Source of the DNA: Coriobacteriia bacterium
GTDB taxonomy: Bacteria; Actinomycetota; Coriobacteriia; Anaerosomatales; PHET01
Direction: 5' to 3'
DNA length: 52,592 nucleotides
NCBI GenBank assembly: GCA_009779675.1
Contig: WRDS01000002.1
Coordinates: forward strand, 1-52,592
Part shown: one piece after another, positions 3,364 through 31,310 of the stretch
How the letters are laid out: the number at the start of each line of letters is the position of its first letter
How positions within the stretch are numbered: position 1 is the first letter of the stretch
The notes under the pieces: model-generated
Databases searched by the model: none
The model's input: the letters and a program-made list of their open reading frames with translations, nothing else
What the model was told of the DNA's origin: nothing
Position numbers and translations under genes: made by a program

Positions 3364-4743
3364 ATGCGCGGACGACACCTGAGACTGTCCTTTGGCGTAC
3401 TGAAGGCAGCTCTTGCCGCAGCTCTTGCCGCAACGAAAGATGCACAGCCCATATCCGTAGGTGGTGGCCGTTTTAGCACCTCGGCAGCCAGGAGTGCGCC
3501 ACCACCAGTATCTGCTCCACACCCTTCTTTTTCTTCTTTTCGTTTTTCCCGTTCGGGAGTGTCCCTGTGTAAGAGGCTTCCAGTCCTTCTATTGGTCTGC
3601 GCTCTTGCGATGTCGGGGTTCGGGTGTAAGACCCCTGGAAGCTCCGAAGAGCCTCCTAGCGACAACAAAGGCCCCTTTAAGATCGGAGCAGTCCTTTCGC
3701 TCACTGGCACGTATGCTCCTCTCGGCGAGTCGGCAAAAAAGGCTATCGACCTCGAGGTCGGCCGTATCAATGCGCAGGGGGGGGTCAACGGGCGTGAGAT
3801 ACAGGTGCTCATTGAGGATGACGGGACCGATGAGGCAAAGTCCCTTGCAGCTGCGAGCAGGCTCATCGACCGCGAGGAAGTCCTCGCCATTATCGGCGCA
3901 TCGGGCACCGGGCAGAGCATGTCGATGCGAAGCGAACTCAACCGTGCCGGAGTTGCGCAGATCTCTTTGGCGGGCGGCACGGTCATCACTGATGACTTTG
4001 ATTCGCTTGTCTTTCAGACACCCTGGTCAAATACCCTGGTAGTCCCATACATCCTGGATGCCATGGTGGCGCGCAATGTAAGTAAGGTAGCGCTGCTTTC
4101 GGATTCGGGTGGCTATGGCAAAGACGGACGTGCGGTTATCTTGCAAGAGGCACCAAAGCTTGGTCTGGAAATCGTCTCCGACCAGACGTTTAACCCAGGC
4201 GATACCGACATGTCCACGCAGCTCACCAAAGTCCGCTCTTCCGATGCCGATGCAATCCTTTTGTGGAATGCGGGCAAAGAGGCTGCGATCATAGTTAGAA
4301 ACGCAACCGACCTCGGGTTGAATCTGCCGATGTTTGGCGGTTCCGGGCAGGCGAGGTTGGAGTTTATAGAGGGGGCGGGGGAGGCTGGCAACGGGTTTGT
4401 CTTCGCCACCGGTCGAAGCCTGGTCCCTGACAACTGGGAAAAAGGCTCAGCCCAGCATGAGGCTGTCTCAAAGTTCGCCGAGGAATACAAGGCAAAATAC
4501 GGGGAGCCGCCAGATATCTTTGCTGGTCATGCTTTTGACGCTATGGCGATCGTCGTTGCGGCCTTGGAGCGCACAGAGGGCATGCCGACTCCGGCAGAGC
4601 TGCGCGACGCGATAGAGCAGACATCCGGAATCCCTGGCTTTGGCGGAACATTCACTTTCTCGGCAAACGACCACAACGGCCTTGGAAAAAAGGATGTGGC
4701 GCTCTACGTTGTGCGTGACGGCAAATGGGAGACAGCGGAGTAG
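3364..4743 (+). CDS. livJ: Branched-chain amino acid-type ABC transporter substrate-binding lipoprotein (LivJ/LivK family)
   Basis: FKIGAVLSLTGTYAPLGESAKKAIDLEVGRINAQGGVNGREIQVLIEDDG is typical of the Leu/Ile/Val-binding family. Lipobox LLVCALAMSGFGC. Start is uncertain: ATG 3364 has RBS GGAAGGAGGG, and GTG 3559 would start directly at the lipoprotein signal. Confidence 0.85.
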   Translation: MRGRHLRLSFGVLKAALAAALAATKDAQPISVGGGRFSTSAARSAPPPVSAPHPSFSSFRFSRSGVSLCKRLPVLLLVCALAMSGFGCKTPGSSEEPPSDNKGPFKIGAVLSLTGTYAPLGESAKKAIDLEVGRINAQGGVNGREIQVLIEDDGTDEAKSLAAASRLIDREEVLAIIGASGTGQSMSMRSELNRAGVAQISLAGGTVITDDFDSLVFQTPWSNTLVVPYILDAMVARNVSKVALLSDSGGYGKDGRAVILQEAPKLGLEIVSDQTFNPGDTDMSTQLTKVRSSDADAILLWNAGKEAAIIVRNATDLGLNLPMFGGSGQARLEFIEGAGEAGNGFVFATGRSLVPDNWEKGSAQHEAVSKFAEEYKAKYGEPPDIFAGHAFDAMAIVVAALERTEGMPTPAELRDAIEQTSGIPGFGGTFTFSANDHNGLGKKDVALYVVRDGKWETAE

Positions 4744-12453: not shown

Positions 12454-12762
12454 CTACCCCAGTGAATCTTTTAGGGCTTTTACCCTTTCGTTAATTGAGT
12501 TAATGTGTGCCTCATCCGTCATGCTCGGATCTTTCCAATCATAGAAAATCTGACAAGGAAGCTCGGTGCACTCAGCGCACGATTGATAGCCCTTCTTACT
12601 AACAGCGCAATCATACATAGGGCAGACTTCAAATCCAAAATCCTTTATGTAGAACGGTTTTCCCTCTGTGGCGCGGCACCCACCGCAGGTCTTGCACTCA
12701 TCACAAATTTCGAAATAACCTTCACAATCTACGCCGCATGGTGACAACAGCATTGGCAACAA
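12454..12762 (-). CDS. Cysteine-rich DUF3795-like protein
   Basis: CGVDCEGY...CDECKTCGGC...CPMYDC...CAEC...LPC pattern. Lower-GC segment. Confidence 0.6.
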   Translation of the reverse strand: MLPMLLSPCGVDCEGYFEICDECKTCGGCRATEGKPFYIKDFGFEVCPMYDCAVSKKGYQSCAECTELPCQIFYDWKDPSMTDEAHINSINERVKALKDSLG

Positions 12763-12929
12763 CCCCCTCGTTATAATCCGCTGTCATAATCGCTCGTACC
12801 TGTACTTGCTCGTACCGTATTTCATTTAACCGAAAATGTGCAGAGCCTGCTGTGCGTAGTACCCTGTGCTTCGCAATGCGGGCTTTTTATTCGCTTCCCG
12901 CATTCCCACTTTTCCTATTTGCTGTTTTC

Positions 12930-13376
12930 CTACTTGAGCCCCTTGAGTTCAGATGTGAACTCATCAAGATCTTGAAACTCTTTGTAGACCGATGCAAACC
13001 GGACATACGCGACTTTATCGAGGTCTTTAAGACGCTTTAATACCATGTCTCCGAGCTGACTACTGTCTACTTCAGTGCGAAACTCGTTGTATAGCTGTCT
13101 TTCGATGGCATCTATCAGTGACTCCAGCTGCTCAAGGTCGACATTACGTTTTACCGTTGCGACAAGGAGCCCACGTCTTAACTTGGAACGGTCAAAAGGC
13201 TCGGATACCCCATCTTTCTTGAGCACCATGAGCGGCATCTCTTCTCGTCGCTCATAGGTGGTAAAACGCTCTGTGCAACCCAGACATTCACGTCTTCTCC
13301 GGACCGCGTCCTGCGACTCGGAGGTGCGCGAGTCAACAACTTTTGTCTCTTCGTGACCGCAAAATGGACAGCGCAT
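12930..13376 (-). CDS. nrdR: Transcriptional repressor NrdR
   Basis: Zn ribbon MRCPFCGH...CLGC followed by an ATP-cone (KKDGVSEPFDRSKLRRGL...VAYVRFASVYKEF). Confidence 0.95.
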   Translation of the reverse strand: MRCPFCGHEETKVVDSRTSESQDAVRRRRECLGCTERFTTYERREEMPLMVLKKDGVSEPFDRSKLRRGLLVATVKRNVDLEQLESLIDAIERQLYNEFRTEVDSSQLGDMVLKRLKDLDKVAYVRFASVYKEFQDLDEFTSELKGLK

Positions 13377-13382
13377 CGCTCA

Positions 13383-13448
13383 CCCCTATATCTAGGATAA
13401 GCACAACGCTACCATACTAGATATAGGGGCTTCAACTATATGTAGTGT
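13383..13448. promoter_or_regulatory. NrdR-box-like palindromes upstream of nrdR
   Basis: Cores CTATATCTAG (13386-13395) and CTAGATATAG (13417-13426) have centres 31 bp apart. A third site is CAACTATATGTAGTGT (13433-13448). Compared with the published consensus acaCwAtATaTwGtgt. Confidence 0.5.
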
Positions 13449-13573
13449 CAGTATATCAACGACCCACTTACGGAGCATGGTATTAAGCCCGGTTGAATGA
13501 TCGGAGCGTTCTCTAAAAAAACATGCCCTACGGATAAAATTGATACGGATAAATGGACATGCCCAAACCGACA

Positions 13574-13807
13574 TTACAGGCCAAGCCCGCCATGGCCGCT
13601 CATCCATGTGGCCGTGAAAAGTGCCAGGAGGGCAATGGCGGCTATCAGAAATTCAATGCGTACTGTGTCAAAACGCACCGCTGTGAGCGAAACGTCCTTT
13701 TGTTGGGGACCGCTTTGCTTGGCGTACCTATGGTTGCCGTGTTTGCTGTGCCCACAGTATTTATAGCTGTTGTAGCAACCGTTTTGCCTGTTTCGACCCT
13801 TGTACAT
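13574..13807 (-). CDS. Small basic protein with C-terminal transmembrane helix; candidate SOS-regulated membrane protein
   Basis: RBS AGGGAGA lies 5 nt before the ATG at 13807. 77 aa: N-terminal half rich in K, R, H, Y, N, then IEFLIAAIALLALFTATWM. Divergent from lexA across the SOS-box region. Confidence 0.55.
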   Translation of the reverse strand: MYKGRNRQNGCYNSYKYCGHSKHGNHRYAKQSGPQQKDVSLTAVRFDTVRIEFLIAAIALLALFTATWMSGHGGLGL

Positions 13808-13874
13808 TAGTATCTCCCTGAATCGCGTTTGCCTGAGGTTAGCTCAGGGGTATGACATTCATCATGTGAGCTAT

Positions 13875-13942
13875 GAACACCTGTTCGTGTTCATTATGGG
13901 GAACAAGTGTTCGGTCTGCAATAGATAATCGAACATTTGTTT
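13875..13942. promoter_or_regulatory. Three LexA (SOS) boxes of GAAC-N4-GTTC type
   Basis: GAACACCTGTTC 13875-13886, GAACAAGTGTTC 13901-13912, GAACATTTGTTT 13931-13942. The third overlaps the putative lexA -35. Confidence 0.8.
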
Positions 13943-13969
13943 GTAAAAAAATCTAGCCAGGGTTACACT
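13941..13969 (+). promoter_or_regulatory. Putative lexA promoter
   Basis: TTGTAA (13941-13946), 17-nt spacer, TACACT (13964-13969). Confidence 0.4.
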
Positions 13970-14025
13970 GGCATACTGAAGCCCGAGTGCATCGAAGCCA
14001 GATGGCCAGATGGTTTGGAGATTCC

Positions 14026-14649
14026 ATGAGATACGAGCGAGGATTGTCTCGGCGCCAGGAGCAGATCCTTGATTTCATCCGTGCCGAGATACACCTGCGT
14101 GGCTATCCCCCCAGCGTGCGGGAGATCGGAGAGGCTGTCGGGCTGTCCTCCTCCTCCACCGTTCATGCTCACCTGTCAACACTGGAGGAAAAAGGCTTTT
14201 TGCGCAGAGATCCATCCAAGCCGAGGGCATTGGAGGTCTTAGATTTCCGCGATAACGATGCTGCAATCGATATGGGCAAGGTGCGTGCTATCCCCGTTGT
14301 CGGTCAGATCGCAGCCGGTGAGCCGATACTTGCTGCCGAGAACATCGAGCAGACAATCCCGCTCCCTGCTGAATTCTCCGGCGAGCAAACCTACATCCTT
14401 CGGGTACGTGGTGAGTCGATGATAGATGCCGGTATCTTTGATGGGGACTTTGTAGTGGTGCAACAGCAACAGACAGCGGTAAACGGCGATGTCGTTGTTG
14501 CAATGCTTGAAGATGAGGCGACGGTAAAGAGGTATTACCGAGAGGCCGACCGTATCAGACTTCAGCCTGAGAACTCGGCAATGGATCCTATCTATGCACG
14601 CGATGTCATGATCCTCGGCAAGGTCATTGCGCTTTTCAGGCGCTTGTGA
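14026..14649 (+). CDS. lexA: LexA repressor
   Basis: w[54 protein letters not shown]24 peptidase with GESMIDAGI (Ser) and ATVKRY (Lys). ATG 14026 follows GGAGA. The ORF is open from GTG 13987. Confidence 0.93.
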
Positions 14650-14751
14650 CATCTGGAAAGATCCGGGTCTGTGATCTGGCCGTCAGCACCTCGACTGAGG
14701 CCGAGAGATTGAGCGTTTGAGACGCAGGTCGCAGCAGCTCGTCAGCGTGCT

Positions 14752-15471
14752 CTAATGCAACGTGAACTCGTTCTTCCGGTAGTCGATAAGCCCGTCTTGC
14801 CTCATGCGGGACAGCTCGTGCGAGAGCGCGCTCCGGTCTACACAGAGGAAAGCAGCTAATTCCTCGCGGTTTAAAGGAATGCTAATGGTTCTTCTCCCCT
14901 GCTTTATGGCGATGGATTTCAAGTAGGCCGAGACCTTCTTGCGCACGGTTTTTTGACTGATCACATCCATCCTGCCCTGTAGCAGGATGTTTTTTGTAGC
15001 GATCAGAAAAAGCATGTTCTCGATAAGCTGGGCGTGAAAAATGCAAGAGCTTGGGCAGGTATGCAGTATGCGCATGAACGCAGTCATTAGGACCAGTGTC
15101 TCACTGGTGGTCACAACGCTGACAGGGCTTTCCTTCACGCCTGCGCAGCAGAGTGCCTCGGCAAAGTAATCACCCTCAGAGAGCGTTTCAATGATGACCC
15201 GCTTGCCTTCCATGTTCTCTTGAATGACGTGTGCGCTGCCTTTTAGCAGGATGCCGATGTGCCTCGGCTCATTGCCCGCCATCAGGACAAAGCTGTTTTT
15301 GTCAAAGCGGATGACCTCCGCACCCAAACAAGACAGCATGGACAGGAGGTCTTTTTCCTCGATCCCGTCAAACAGCCTCACCGTTTTGAGCGCGTCATTT
15401 AGTGCGTCAACGTGTTTTGCCAGCGCGCAGCGATCCTGATGTGATCGTGCTTGGCGTGGCTGTGTGTGCAA
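14752..15471 (-). CDS. Crp/Fnr family transcriptional regulator
   Basis: cNMP-binding-like barrel (LFDGIEEKDLLSML...GDYFAEA) and C-terminal HTH REELAAFLCVDRSALSHELSRMRQDGLI. TTG 15471 is preceded by AAGGAGA. The longer ORF would run into the divergent gene. Confidence 0.85.
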   Translation of the reverse strand: MHTQPRQARSHQDRCALAKHVDALNDALKTVRLFDGIEEKDLLSMLSCLGAEVIRFDKNSFVLMAGNEPRHIGILLKGSAHVIQENMEGKRVIIETLSEGDYFAEALCCAGVKESPVSVVTTSETLVLMTAFMRILHTCPSSCIFHAQLIENMLFLIATKNILLQGRMDVISQKTVRKKVSAYLKSIAIKQGRRTISIPLNREELAAFLCVDRSALSHELSRMRQDGLIDYRKNEFTLH

Positions 15472-15562
15472 GAGCGCTCTCCTTGTCCTTTTAGTGCGTC
15501 GAGTGTGCTGGTACGTTCCCTCAAGGCCCTCTCCACTGGACTTCTTAGATCTTTTGTACAGT

Positions 15563-15582
15563 TTCGTGCTAATTACCACGAA
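15563..15582. promoter_or_regulatory. Palindrome TTCGTG-N8-CACGAA in the divergent Crp/ferredoxin intergenic region
   Basis: TTCGTGCTAATTACCACGAA. A second palindrome TTTTGATTCAAAA lies at 15604-15616. Confidence 0.4.
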
Positions 15583-15667
15583 CTTTTTAAACTCAGAATA
15601 GTATTTTGATTCAAAAACCTCAAAGCGTGCAACGCATGGCGCGAGGGACAACGGATGGAGGGAACAA

Positions 15668-16339
15668 ATGATCCGCAAGATCATTGTCATTGACGAGAAA
15701 AAGTGTAACGGCTGCGGTCTTTGTGTCGATGCTTGCCATGAAGGGGCTATCGGCATAATAGACGGGAAGGCCAGGCTGCTGCACGACGACTACTGCGACG
15801 GGCTGGGTGACTGTTTGCCGGTCTGCCCTACCGAAGCGATCACTTTCGAGGAGCGCGAGGCAGAAGCGTATGACGAGGAGGCGGTCAGGAAGAATATGGG
15901 GAAAAGTGCCTTGGCCGCAGATGTCTCGACCTCATCGGTCTCGGTGCCAGGTGCCTCGGTGGTGGCGGCAGCATCGCACCTTAACCGGTGGCCGATACAG
16001 ATTAAGTTGATGCCAGTAAGAGCGCCCTATTTCGATGGGGCAGACCTACTGGTGTCTGCCGACTGTGCTGCCTATACCTACGGGGCTTTCCACGGCAAGT
16101 TTATGCGTGACAAAGTGACGTTGATCGGGTGCCCAAAGCTTGATGAGGGAGATTACTCAGAAAAACTGACTGCCATTATGACCAACAACAACATTGCATC
16201 GGTGACCGTAGTGCGCATGGAGGTGCCCTGTTGCGGGGGGATTGAAAGTGCTGCGAGAAAAGCCCTGCAAAACAGCGGTAAGACGGTGCCTTTGCAGGTA
16301 GTGACGTTTTCCGTCACGGGAAAAATATTGCAGGGATGA
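15668..16339 (+). CDS. 4Fe-4S dicluster domain protein (ferredoxin-like N-terminus plus Cys-containing C-terminal domain)
   Basis: CNGCGLCVDACHEGAI and CDGLGDCLPVCP cluster motifs, C-terminal CPKL...VPCCGG. RBS GGAGGG. Confidence 0.85.
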   Translation: MIRKIIVIDEKKCNGCGLCVDACHEGAIGIIDGKARLLHDDYCDGLGDCLPVCPTEAITFEEREAEAYDEEAVRKNMGKSALAADVSTSSVSVPGASVVAAASHLNRWPIQIKLMPVRAPYFDGADLLVSADCAAYTYGAFHGKFMRDKVTLIGCPKLDEGDYSEKLTAIMTNNNIASVTVVRMEVPCCGGIESAARKALQNSGKTVPLQVVTFSVTGKILQG

Positions 16340-16478: not shown

Positions 16479-17795
16479 TTATTCTTCGATCACAGGAGCC
16501 GAGAACTGCGCAAAAACCGTGGCCGTCTCCTGCGAAGCCCGAAGAACCATCTGCGTGCCGTCTTCTGTGTAGTGCTCGGCAAGCACCTGCGCGTGCTCAT
16601 GGGCACGCTGGACGAGATCACCCCGCGTAAAGGGGATCAGGACGGAGATCGTCACCGAATCGCGTGCAGCTTCTTCGGCGATTCGTCCGATCAAGGAGTC
16701 CAGGCCCTCTCCGGTAAGAGCGGAAACCAGCTCAGCTGTCGGGTAGCGCTTGCCCAAAGCCTCGTGCTCCTCGGCGGGGAGCCCATCGGTCTTATTAAAG
16801 ACCACGAGGTTTCTTTTCGCATGTGCGCCGATCTCACCTAGGACTTCGCGGACCGCCTGCATCTGCGACTCCCGCATAGGTGAGGTCGCGTCGGTCACGT
16901 GCAGCAGCAAGTCGGCCTCGTTGACCTCATCAAGTGTTGACCGAAAGGCCTCGACAAGCCCGTGAGGCAGCTTGTTGATGAATCCGACTGTATCGGTGAG
17001 CGTGATGAGCCTGCCTTCAGGAAGCTCAAGGCGTCGCGTGGTTGAGTCCAAGGTGGCGAATAGCATGTCTGCAACAAGGGCATCGGCATCGGTCAAGGCA
17101 TTCAGCAGCGTAGATTTGCCCGCATTCGTGTAGCCGACGAGGGCGATTCTGAACACACCTGAGCGCGCACGCTGCTTTCTCTGCAGATCGCGCTCCCCTG
17201 CCACTGCGACAAGCAGGCGTTTAAGCTCCGCAATGCGTTTCCGTGCAAGTCTGCGGTCTGTCTCAAGCTGAGACTCACCAGCGCCGAACCGAGTACCGCG
17301 GCCACCGCCGAGACGCTCCCGTTCAAGGTGGCCCCACATCCCTCGCAGCCGAGGAAGCACGTACTCCTGCTGTGCCAGCTCGACCTGGAGTTTGCCCTCT
17401 CGGCTGACCGCATGGGTGGCAAATATCTCCAGGATAAGCGCTGTGCGGTCAATGACCCGCGTGTCGGGCAGGAGTTTCTCTACATTGAGCTGTTGGCTCG
17501 GGCTAAGCTCGTCGTCAAAAATGACGAGGTTTGCCCCGGTCTGCTTTACACGATCCGCTACCTCGTTGGCCTTGCCGGATCCGATGAAGGTGCGTGGGTT
17601 CGGCCGATCAAGCCGCTGCGTGAGCATGTCGGCCACCCGGATGTCGGCTGTGCGGGCCAGTCGCTCAAGCTCGGCAAGTGATTCCTCGATCGGCCACGTG
17701 TCGCCTCCTGAGTCGACACCCACAAGAACCGCTATGTCCTGATTATCCGCCTTGTCGCTTGCGGTCTCAGGGTATATGCGTTGGCGTCCTCCCAA
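16479..17795 (-). CDS. hflX: GTPase HflX
   Basis: N-terminal HflX domain, G1 GYTNAGKSTLLNALT, DTVGFI, NKTD. Confidence 0.93.
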   Translation of the reverse strand: MGGRQRIYPETASDKADNQDIAVLVGVDSGGDTWPIEESLAELERLARTADIRVADMLTQRLDRPNPRTFIGSGKANEVADRVKQTGANLVIFDDELSPSQQLNVEKLLPDTRVIDRTALILEIFATHAVSREGKLQVELAQQEYVLPRLRGMWGHLERERLGGGRGTRFGAGESQLETDRRLARKRIAELKRLLVAVAGERDLQRKQRARSGVFRIALVGYTNAGKSTLLNALTDADALVADMLFATLDSTTRRLELPEGRLITLTDTVGFINKLPHGLVEAFRSTLDEVNEADLLLHVTDATSPMRESQMQAVREVLGEIGAHAKRNLVVFNKTDGLPAEEHEALGKRYPTAELVSALTGEGLDSLIGRIAEEAARDSVTISVLIPFTRGDLVQRAHEHAQVLAEHYTEDGTQMVLRASQETATVFAQFSAPVIEE

Positions 17796-29434: not shown

Positions 29435-30487
29435 TCAATCGGTCTTTTCTGCCGCATCCGCCTCCTTTACCGACGGGCTTCTGGAGGACTCTGGTGCAGG
29501 AAGATCCAAGGTCTGTCTGATGCGGGACTCGATCTCGTCACGAAGGTCTGGGTTCTCGCGAAGCGAGTCTTTAGCTGCCTCGCGTCCTTGTCCAAGTCGG
29601 TTGTCGTTATAGGCATACCAGGCACCGGACTTCGCTACGATCCCCTCTTCCACGCCAAGATCAAGGATCGAGCCTTCTTTGCTGATGCCAAACCCATACA
29701 TAAGATCAAACTCTGCTTGCCTGAACGGGGGAGCTACCTTGTTCTTCACGACTTTCGCCCGCACTCTGCCACCCACAACCTCGGTGCCCTGCTTTATGTG
29801 ATCGATCCTGCGGACATCGATGCGCACGCTGGAGAAGAACTTGAGCGCCCTACCGCCTGTGGTGGTTTCCGGATTACCGTATACGACCCCGATTTTTTCA
29901 CGGAGCTGGTTAATGAAGATACATGTCGTATTGGAGCGGTTCAAAGAGCCTGCCAGCTTGCGAAGCGCTTGACTCATCAAGCGTGCCTGTAAACCGACAA
30001 CGGTATCCCCCATCTCCCCCTCGATCTCGGCGCGTGGGACAAGGGCTGCAACCGAGTCGATGACAACGACATCGATCGCCCCGCTGCGGACAAGCATATC
30101 GGCGATCTCCAGCCCCTGTTCACCGGTGTCTGGCTGACTTATCAGTATCTCGTTTATGTCAACGCCGAGGCGGGACGCATAACCAGGGTCGAGCGCATGC
30201 TCTGCATCAATAAAAGCGGCAACACCACCCATTGCCTGGGCTTCTGCAACAATCTGCAAGGCCAAGGTGGTTTTCCCGCTGGACTCTGGGCCAAAGATCT
30301 CGACAATCCTGCCCCGAGGGACACCGCCGATTCCCAGCGCTGCATCAAGGGCCAACGACCCTGTGGGAATCACCGACACCTGCTGTCCGGCGGCGTTTTC
30401 CCCGAGTCTCATCAAAGAGCCTTTGCCGAATTTCTTCTCGATCTGCTCTTTGGTGATCTCGAGCATCTTGTTCTTCTCGGTTTCCAT
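29435..30487 (-). CDS. recA: Recombinase RecA
   Basis: [46 protein letters not shown]. Confidence 0.97.
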
Positions 30488-30563: not shown

Positions 30564-30592
30564 ACCTTATACGAACATATGTTCGTTGTCAA
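30564..30592 (-). promoter_or_regulatory. recA promoter with embedded LexA box
   Basis: Minus strand reads TTGACA-ACGAACATATGTTCG-TATAAGGT. The perfect CGAACATATGTTCG at 30572-30585 lies between the -35 and -10 elements. Confidence 0.75.
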
Positions 30593-30659: not shown

Positions 30660-31310
30660 TCAACCGGTTTCCGCCCTGTCCGCCTTACCGCAAAGCGGCC
30701 ATGCGCCGATCTCTGTGTACTTTGGCCCCCGGGGACTTAAAACGCTTGTGAACACAGTAACCGAAGCCACTGACACGGAAAGCGCTTGGCCGCCCATTGG
30801 GCGGCCAAGCGCTCGGTCGCTGCCCATAAGGGCGCTGTTTTCAGTACGCGCACTGCCGAGGAAAGGCACGCCGCCTGCAATGGCTTTCGGATGCCGCGCT
30901 CGGCACAGGGTGATATGTGGAACCGCCGTGCGCTCGTCAGGCAGGATGCCAAAGGCGGATGCAGCCTGTTGGATTTTGGCAACCAGCTCGGCAAAGTGAT
31001 GGCCCTCATCAAGGTACTGAACCCACAGCATGCCGCAGCGACGGGAGTTGGGCACCGCCTGCACCTTCTCGGCATGAAGGGTAAATGGCTCGGTGGACGC
31101 AACGACCTCCCCGATCCCACTTTGCAGTAAGGCCAGGTCGTGCTCGGTAAGGGTTCCGAAGAACTGCACAGTGATGTGGTAGTTTTGCGGAAGGACCCAC
31201 TTCTCATCGCGCCAATCCGGTGCATCGGCGCGGATGGCATCGCGAATCCGGGTAAGCTCCCGAACGGTGGTGTCGTTAAGGCTGATGCCTGCGAAACAGC
31301 GAGCGCCCAT
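30660..31310 (-). CDS. thpR: RNA 2',3'-cyclic phosphodiesterase (2H phosphoesterase, ThpR/LigT family)
   Basis: Two HxT motifs (YHITVQFFG and PHITLCRA). The ATG shares one nucleotide with the cinA stop (TGATG). Confidence 0.8.
   Translation of the reverse strand: MGARCFAGISLNDTTVRELTRIRDAIRADAPDWRDEKWVLPQNYHITVQFFGTLTEHDLALLQSGIGEVVASTEPFTLHAEKVQAVPNSRRCGMLWVQYLDEGHHFAELVAKIQQAASAFGILPDERTAVPHITLCRARHPKAIAGGVPFLGSARTENSALMGSDRALGRPMGGQALSVSVASVTVFTSVLSPRGPKYTEIGAWPLCGKADRAETG

Follow-up and report, generated by a model that had tools for sequence, protein, structure and literature searches.

YneA of Bacillus subtilis and ChiZ (Rv2719c) of Mycobacterium tuberculosis share a design that combines a transmembrane (TM) helix with a LysM domain (PMC6851548). 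In B. subtilis, docking of YneA on FtsW is the task of its TM helix, and inhibition that of its LysM domain: the protein deprived of LysM still localizes at midcell and binds TM7 of FtsW, yet division is not blocked, and the binding of LysM to peptidoglycan is indispensable (PMC13396833). SosA of Staphylococcus aureus has no LysM domain; its TM helix covers residues 10–30, and its C-terminal ectodomain, about 47 residues long, is essential, with residues about 40–45 being needed (PMC6851548). SidA and DidA of Caulobacter need hardly more than a TM helix to act on FtsW/FtsN (PMC4211646, PMC13396833). Here we analyzed a small gene located between nrdR and lexA in a 52,592-nt stretch of DNA from a Coriobacteriia bacterium (contig WRDS01000002.1, assembly GCA_009779675.1). 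The whole stretch (52.6 kb) is referred to as the window, and all positions are numbered along it. The gene, a minus-strand open reading frame (ORF) of 77 codons named ORF77, occupies the slot of chiZ, divS and yneA, is divergent from lexA and lies behind putative LexA operators, as an earlier, sequence-only reading of this DNA had proposed. Our comparative analyses suggest that ORF77 is a LysM-less ortholog of the YneA/ChiZ-type proteins, with its activity attenuated or lost, and we assign to this explanation a probability of roughly 0.55. The sequence-only reading went too far in denying any homology among the known inhibitors, given the design common to YneA and ChiZ.

Loci of relatives were gathered via LexA (GTDB genomes, JGI metagenomes) and via the nearest LexA proteins. 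Twenty-four related loci, labeled Coriobacteriia, Anaerosomatales or 'HGW-Actinobacteria-7' and with LexA 66–82% and NrdR 73–89% identical, are referred to as the clade. The order nrdR (minus), minus-strand slot gene, three boxes and lexA (plus) was found in 24/24 clade loci. In M. tuberculosis, the order nrdR-chiZ-lexA corresponds to Rv2718c-Rv2720, which we take to be the same three-gene arrangement as in the window. The sequence-only reading had proposed looking for a similar ORF in this slot of related Coriobacteriia; such a gene is present in every clade locus. The encoded proteins, of 90–150 amino acids (aa), have a basic N-terminus and a single TM helix, which a short linker connects to a LysM domain. 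LysM (PF01476) was detected in all 14 slot proteins that were scanned against Pfam and NCBIfam, and is precomputed in 5 more loci. The same 14 proteins matched NF010723, 'cell division suppressor protein YneA', over profile positions 6–87 of 87 with 42–61 bits (cut-off 60 bits), the match spanning both the TM and the LysM parts. As these slot proteins possess TM and LysM parts and match NF010723, the slot gene of the clade is of the YneA/ChiZ type.

In the multiple alignment, ORF77 spans the N-terminal region and the TM helix of the clade proteins and then ends: its RIEFLIAAIALLALFTATWMSGHGGLGL, followed by the stop codon, stands against AIEVLVIVALIAAVLAAALLSGHGGSGV...LysM of locus L012 and ...LVIVALFAAAWLSGGS... 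of locus L002. The family pattern of the TM region consists of IE where the helix starts and W-x-SG after the helix. A juxtamembrane SGHGG is common to ORF77 and the L012 protein, and the stop codon of ORF77 is located 8 codons past the helix. When ORF77 was compared by hhalign with a profile of 17 relatives, its residues 47–75 were placed on the TM columns with a probability of 79.5% (P 1.5e-5). Three controls with a hydrophobic segment of their own or a C-terminal TM helix, i.e., the overlapping plus-strand ORF 13553–13810 and two tail-anchored slot proteins of other Coriobacteriia, gave a probability of 1% at most. The hidden Markov model (HMM) of the relatives ranked ORF77 first of 1022 ORFs of the window, though weakly (8.9 bits, E 0.064), and the best non-self tblastn matches of ORF77 fell on the TM region of the L002 and L164 slot genes, on the right strand. 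Of the HMM-type searches suggested in the sequence-only reading, those against Pfam and NCBIfam gave no match for ORF77 at E<=1; in view of the comparison with the relatives, its impression that the ORF resembles none of the known inhibitors is not supported. The LysM part of the profile found no match in any frame of 13377–13660.

In view of the TM match with its controls, the synteny, the position of the stop codon and the lack of a LysM remnant downstream, ORF77 is very probably a truncated ortholog of the YneA/ChiZ-like family. As judged from the alignment, it is a gene from which the linker, the LysM domain and the tail were deleted, and neither a frameshifted gene nor a new invention. 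Common descent, i.e., a homologous TM segment at a shared locus, is indicated mainly by synteny. Neither LysM nor NF010723, by which the YneA/ChiZ type is recognized, is detected in ORF77 (E<=1), which agrees with the sequence-only reading as to the lack of LysM; we accordingly class it as a LysM-less variant rather than a full family member. Among the 25 loci of the clade, the LysM-less allele occurs in the window only, that is, in one lineage.

Searches in larger collections returned little beyond ORF77 itself. A word-indexed search of 5.8 billion proteins matched only ORF77, and phmmer against 1.84 billion representatives gave ORF77 and three giant proteins (3132–5310 aa), which we regard as spurious matches, aligned solely over the hydrophobic C-terminal part. 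The closest non-self LexA was 82% identical among the 5.8 billion proteins and at most 77% in the scan of JGI metagenomes. The only other record with ORF77 is an ENA contig (ERZ27257304 k141_1966939), identical in DNA to the window, on which ORF77 is annotated as a gene. Solved structures compared with the family profile yielded generic LysM domains only, with no ChiZ or YneA entry, and our literature search found no paper joining Coriobacteriia with LexA, SOS boxes or YneA.

The gene model of the sequence-only reading was upheld as to the frame, its stated sequence and the strong ribosome-binding site (RBS) 5 nt before the ATG, which lies at 13805–13807 (Table 1). Its description of a basic N-terminal half and a single C-terminal hydrophobic helix holds as well. 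AlphaFold2 run without an alignment left residues 1–41 unstructured, at low confidence, and built a single helix from residues 42–72. The first 50 residues include 10 K/R vs. 2 D/E, which leads to a predicted N-in topology, so that the N-terminus should be cytoplasmic; a single TM helix with a cytoplasmic N-terminus, as in the YneA/ChiZ type, is thus present by prediction. Only 8 residues (SGHGGLGL) follow the helix. A possible terminator after the gene was seen in the minimum-energy fold, yet its z-score was not significant and the terminator scan missed it. As a side observation, residues 11–26 (13729–13777, minus strand) form a pattern C11-x6-C18-x-H20-x2-H23-x2-H26 that the relatives do not have; this could reflect a small metal-binding knuckle, or simply the composition of a lower-GC genome.

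Downstream of ORF77, homology with the relatives resumes in the nrdR promoter region. Immediately upstream of nrdR stand two palindromes, CCCCTATATCTAGTATGG ... CCTAGATATAGGGG, near-invariant in 19 relatives and probably representing tandem NrdR boxes; if so, nrdR would be autoregulated. The ENA annotation places a 60-aa gene right after ORF77 (13392–13574, minus strand). This call overlaps the conserved nrdR promoter with its NrdR boxes, has no homologue and is probably spurious.

The regulatory region between ORF77 and lexA follows the layout of the relatives, with three boxes kept in 24/24 clade loci. Boxes 1 and 2 are perfect GAAC-N4-GTTC palindromes, as the sequence-only reading had claimed for all three, while box 3 carries one mismatch; it is imperfect in all relatives too. 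As expected of operators of the LexA regulon, whose SOS box in Gram-positive bacteria and actinobacteria is CGAAC-N4-GTTCG, the predicted boxes 1 and 2 overlap promoter elements. The sole other perfect box of the window lies at 30573, upstream of recA; since perfect boxes occur in the window at ORF77/lexA and recA only, all three are located at SOS genes. A consensus promoter scan found no promoter; that of ORF77 falls below the scan thresholds and was defined by conservation instead. In an alignment of 18 intergenic regions the slot promoter reads TTGCA[AT] at −35 and TANNNT at −10, with both hexamers conserved in position in relatives, and the lexA promoter of the relatives reads TTTGCA ... 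TA[CG]ACT. On the strength of these conserved elements we consider it probable that ORF77 is still LexA-regulated and expressed. Most relatives have in addition a fourth, half-degenerate box, GTACAnnTGTTCGA, just after the −10 of lexA, which the window lacks (13970–14025); the lexA leader of the window is about 24 nt longer than that of the relatives.

A second promoter element was found nearer to the slot gene. The mycobacterial PafBC (RecA-NDp) motif consists of a −26 element and a −10, tGTCgg(N10)tA(N3)T (PMC8635444), and in M. tuberculosis the rv2719c (chiZ) operon, but not lexA, is under PafBC control (PMC8151990). In the relatives, a near-invariant element TGTCAGA[GC]-N8-TANNNT has the geometry of this motif. 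TGTCAG-N10-TANNNT was present in 22/24 relatives (within loci L001–L013, L020, L029, L081–L085 and L162–L168, at most 330 nt upstream of lexA), always 5′ of the yneA-like gene and on the minus strand; these 22 were all the occurrences in the 146.6 kb of the 24 loci, vs. 0.31 expected. The motif thus points to the slot gene, the same orientation as at the rv2719c operon. The window has a weakened version, with a T at the base where 23/24 relatives have the G of TGTCAG. The only other match of the loosened pattern in the window, TGTCAGTG-N8-TACTGT, lies upstream of recA (0.27 expected). Together with the perfect SOS box, this points to dual control of recA by LexA and a PafBC-like regulator, by analogy with M. 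tuberculosis. The PafBC-type second promoter seems to be conserved in environmental Coriobacteriia, for which we found no paper describing such a promoter. An arrangement of a LexA-controlled and a PafBC-type promoter, suggested by the motifs at the yneA-like genes of the clade and at the recA gene of the window, is the more general by-product of this analysis. An Acidimicrobiia locus (L049) has the same three-gene order and three boxes but no PafBC-type motif. The conserved minus-strand ATGTCAGA was considered as the true start codon (MS[DE]P) and rejected, as its frame agrees with that of the LysM ORF in some relatives only and it fits the −26 element of the PafBC type, with TANNNT exactly 10 nt downstream.

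Among the described proteins, ORF77 resembles YneA in being divergent from lexA with three boxes in between, in being a small bitopic N-in protein by prediction, and in keeping the TM part of a family whose clade members match NF010723. It differs in the lack of LysM and of the C-terminal tail, and in a cytoplasmic N-terminus of about 50 residues vs. a few in YneA. By description, ChiZ has a similarly long, basic and disordered cytoplasmic N-terminus with one TM helix (PMC7851954); the direction of the PafBC-type motif is a further likeness in the relatives, while the −26 element of the window is altered. DivS of Corynebacterium glutamicum is, by description, an SOS-induced membrane protein encoded near lexA in an actinobacterium and, like ORF77, free of LysM (PMC6851548, PMC3989709). 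Unlike ORF77, which is a single occurrence, DivS is conserved and suppresses division. SosA also has 77 aa, a gene adjoining lexA, one TM helix and no LysM (PMC6851548). The layout of ORF77 is reversed, with the TM helix near the C-terminal end and 8 residues outside, so that a functional extracellular membrane-proximal segment, essential in SosA, is missing; no sequence relation between the two is indicated. SidA and DidA of Caulobacter and TisB of Escherichia coli resemble the predicted product of ORF77 as small DNA-damage-induced inner-membrane peptides, but belong to unrelated lineages and have unrelated sequences.

The content of the nrdR-lexA slot was also compared in other Coriobacteriia. 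In L057 (3317–3883, minus strand) and L129 (1818–2384, minus strand) the slot is occupied by a LysM-less tail-anchored ORF of 188 aa. The ratio of nonsynonymous to synonymous substitution rates (dN/dS) between the two is 0.40, and the C-terminal 50 aa with the TM helix are near-identical at dS of about 0.8–1.0; this protein is clearly under purifying selection. L105 (2156–2392, minus strand) has a LysM-less tail-anchored ORF of 78 aa in the slot, which is empty in L048, L100 and L101. The occupant of this slot has changed repeatedly within Coriobacteriia. The L057/L129 and L105 proteins were ruled out as homologues of ORF77 (hhalign below 1%). Outside of this class, locus L014 of Thalassorhabdus alkalitolerans (Bacillales) has, divergent from lexA, a 73-aa ORF with one TM helix and no LysM (3623–3844, minus strand), while neighboring Bacillaceae loci have a normal YneA; it is apparently another LysM-less replacement beside lexA.

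According to the mechanism we propose, LexA would bind boxes 1–3 and repress both lexA and ORF77, so that the module would operate in the manner of yneA-lexA in Bacillus and nrdR-chiZ-lexA in Mycobacterium. After DNA damage, self-cleavage of LexA would release the TTGCAG-17-CATAAT promoter, and a 77-aa tail-anchored peptide would be inserted N-in with 8 residues outside of the membrane. By the precedent of YneA, the product may reach the divisome without its effector domain and would most likely be a checkpoint effector of weakened activity or none, amounting to a natural 'YneA-TM' allele. Such an allele could be a step toward losing the slot gene altogether, as in some other Coriobacteriia; this loss (L048, L100, L101), the retention of LysM in 24/24 relatives and the changed −26 element of the second promoter count toward decay. 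From these points and the precedent of the B. subtilis protein, we put the chances that the division-inhibitor activity of ORF77 is lost or strongly reduced at about even.

Several observations weigh against a LysM-less ortholog of reduced activity. The intact 77-codon frame, the strong RBS, the intact promoter, the perfect box 1 and the possible terminator fit a gene in use. DivS has no LysM (PMC6851548), ChiZ is reported not to need it (PMC3989709, citing Chauhan 2006), and the L057/L129 slot holds a conserved LysM-less tail-anchored protein. The similarity of ORF77 to the family covers about 29 TM residues and is weak on sequence alone, with orthology leaning on synteny, and no close relative of ORF77 was found (the 82% LexA being the best non-self match). 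Codon-usage scores of ORF77 (0.083) and of the plus-strand frame (0.119–0.131) both lie between coding and non-coding values. Most of these points would suit a functional, minimised SOS division inhibitor whose TM helix, perhaps with the basic tail, binds FtsW/FtsI-type proteins and delays septation. Besides the intact signals and the family-type TM helix, this possibility draws on the long basic disordered N-terminus, which resembles that of ChiZ (PMC7851954), and on DivS, SidA, DidA and SosA as LysM-less small membrane inhibitors acting in this way. LysM-less membrane proteins hold the same slot in L057/L129, L105 and Corynebacterium; the L057 and L105 proteins, however, resemble neither ORF77 nor the slot family and are therefore analogies only. 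The TM part of YneA alone is inactive (PMC13396833), SosA needs an extracellular membrane-proximal segment (PMC6851548) where ORF77 has 8 residues, all 24 clade relatives keep LysM, and the LysM-less form was seen once. On balance, we regard a functional minimised inhibitor as a tentative alternative. A still effective inhibitor appears doubtful by analogy with these systems, and we are equally reserved about a working natural member of the YneA/ChiZ type that delays division through its TM helix and basic tail.

The LysM-less ortholog reading was also weighed against explanations in which ORF77 has another origin or no existence of its own. The sequence-only reading had suggested a new inhibitor peculiar to this lineage or a membrane toxin of the TisB type (type I), unrelated to YneA, ChiZ or DivS. 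The empty Pfam/NCBIfam scans, a phmmer result with giant repetitive proteins as the only homologues and a word-indexed search with a self match only would agree with this, but the TM helix is similar to that of the relatives' slot proteins, with negative controls, and position, strand and operator layout are identical. TisB has 29 aa and an RNA antitoxin, unlike the 77 aa of ORF77 with a 50-residue hydrophilic N-terminus and a clear YneA-family ancestry, and no Rfam RNA that could serve as antitoxin was detected in 12500–15000 (E<=1). A new protein or toxin is accordingly improbable, and a truncated YneA/ChiZ-like lineage is favored. Still harder to credit is that the overlapping plus-strand ORF 13553–13810 (85 aa) is the true gene, an outcome that the sequence-only reading had named as fatal to its proposal, or that there is no gene at all but a regulatory spacer. 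In codon usage, the plus-strand frame scores no worse than ORF77; an antisense in-phase frame, however, often scores as a shadow of the true one. This ORF has no Shine-Dalgarno sequence before 13553, no family match, an hhalign probability of 1% vs. the slot family and no counterpart in any relative's slot, and it would be transcribed toward the lexA promoter. An assembly or binning artefact, in which a collapsed or chimeric join removed the LysM part, is conceivable for a metagenomic source, the more so as the two identical records carrying ORF77 may share reads. The conserved sequence is nevertheless unbroken on either side (the nrdR promoter with its NrdR boxes, the operators with lexA), the stop codon closes the frame cleanly without any LysM fragment behind it, and the nrdR-lexA gap, at 649 nt, is in keeping with the 656–815 nt of the relatives; we hold such an artefact to be very unlikely.

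Table 1. Features of the nrdR-lexA region and of the recA locus in the window.
Feature	Position	Strand	Remarks
nrdR	12930-13376	-	TIGR00244, 1e-57
nrdR promoter region, two conserved NrdR-box-like palindromes	13377-13446	-	homology with relatives resumes here
Non-coding spacer, 127 nt	13447-13573	-	in relatives, end of linker-LysM-tail coding lies here
Possible intrinsic terminator after ORF77	13513-13564	-	10-bp stem with G-U pairs, large loop, U7; weak
ORF77 coding sequence, 77 aa + TAA	13574-13807	-	basic disordered N-terminus, one TM helix, 8-residue tail
ORF77 TM helix, codons 51-69, IEFLIAAIALLALFTATWM	13601-13657	-	sole part with detectable similarity to relatives
Shine-Dalgarno AGGGAGA	13813-13819	-	5 nt 5′ of ORF77 ATG
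Weakened PafBC-type promoter, TGTCATAC-N8-TAACCT (TGTCAT-N10-TAACCT)	13836-13857	-	predicted by comparison with relatives
Predicted LexA box 1, GAACACCTGTTC, perfect GAAC-N4-GTTC	13875-13886	.	overlaps predicted ORF77 transcript start
ORF77 sigma-70-like promoter: −35 TTGCAG 13916-13921, 17-nt spacer, −10 CATAAT 13893-13898	13893-13921	-	
Predicted LexA box 2, GAACAAGTGTTC, perfect GAAC-N4-GTTC	13901-13912	.	within ORF77 promoter spacer
Predicted LexA box 3, GAACATTTGTTT, GAAC-N4-GTTT, one mismatch	13931-13942	.	overlaps lexA −35
lexA promoter: −35 TTGTAA 13941-13946, 17 nt, −10 TACACT 13964-13969	13941-13969	+	conserved
lexA	14026-14649	+	TIGR00498, 1e-72
recA	29435-30487	-	perfect SOS box 30573-30584, GAACATATGTTC
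recA PafBC-type element TGTCAGTG-N8-TACTGT	30754-30775	-	exact match, mycobacterial RecA-NDp/PafBC geometry

Two further observations concern the surroundings of the locus and the ends of the clade proteins. Between lexA and hflX (16479–17795, minus strand), the window carries genes for a Crp/Fnr-type regulator (14752–15756, minus strand) and a 4Fe-4S protein (15668–16339, plus strand). Five of the nearest relatives (L162, L164, L165, L167 and L168) have hflX directly behind lexA, which indicates that the neighborhood was rearranged in the lineage of the window. The YneA-like proteins of the clade mostly end in A-[ML]-R, an ending that ORF77 has lost; by analogy with the stability control of YneA/SosA, it may be a C-terminal signal for a CtpA-type protease.

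With this assignment, a small ORF that lacked annotation joins a known family; as the family, its regulation and LysM-less precedents were already known, the advance is incremental. The module of nrdR, a yneA/chiZ-like gene and lexA, with three boxes and a PafBC-type promoter, extends to environmental Coriobacteriia. If ORF77 is active, the LysM domain that is essential in B. subtilis YneA would be dispensable in an actinobacterial lineage, ORF77 would serve as a natural test of inhibition by a TM helix alone, and docking on FtsW could be studied with a naturally occurring separation-of-function allele. An inactive ORF77 would represent a snapshot of the decay of a checkpoint gene, consistent with the complete loss in some gut Coriobacteriia.

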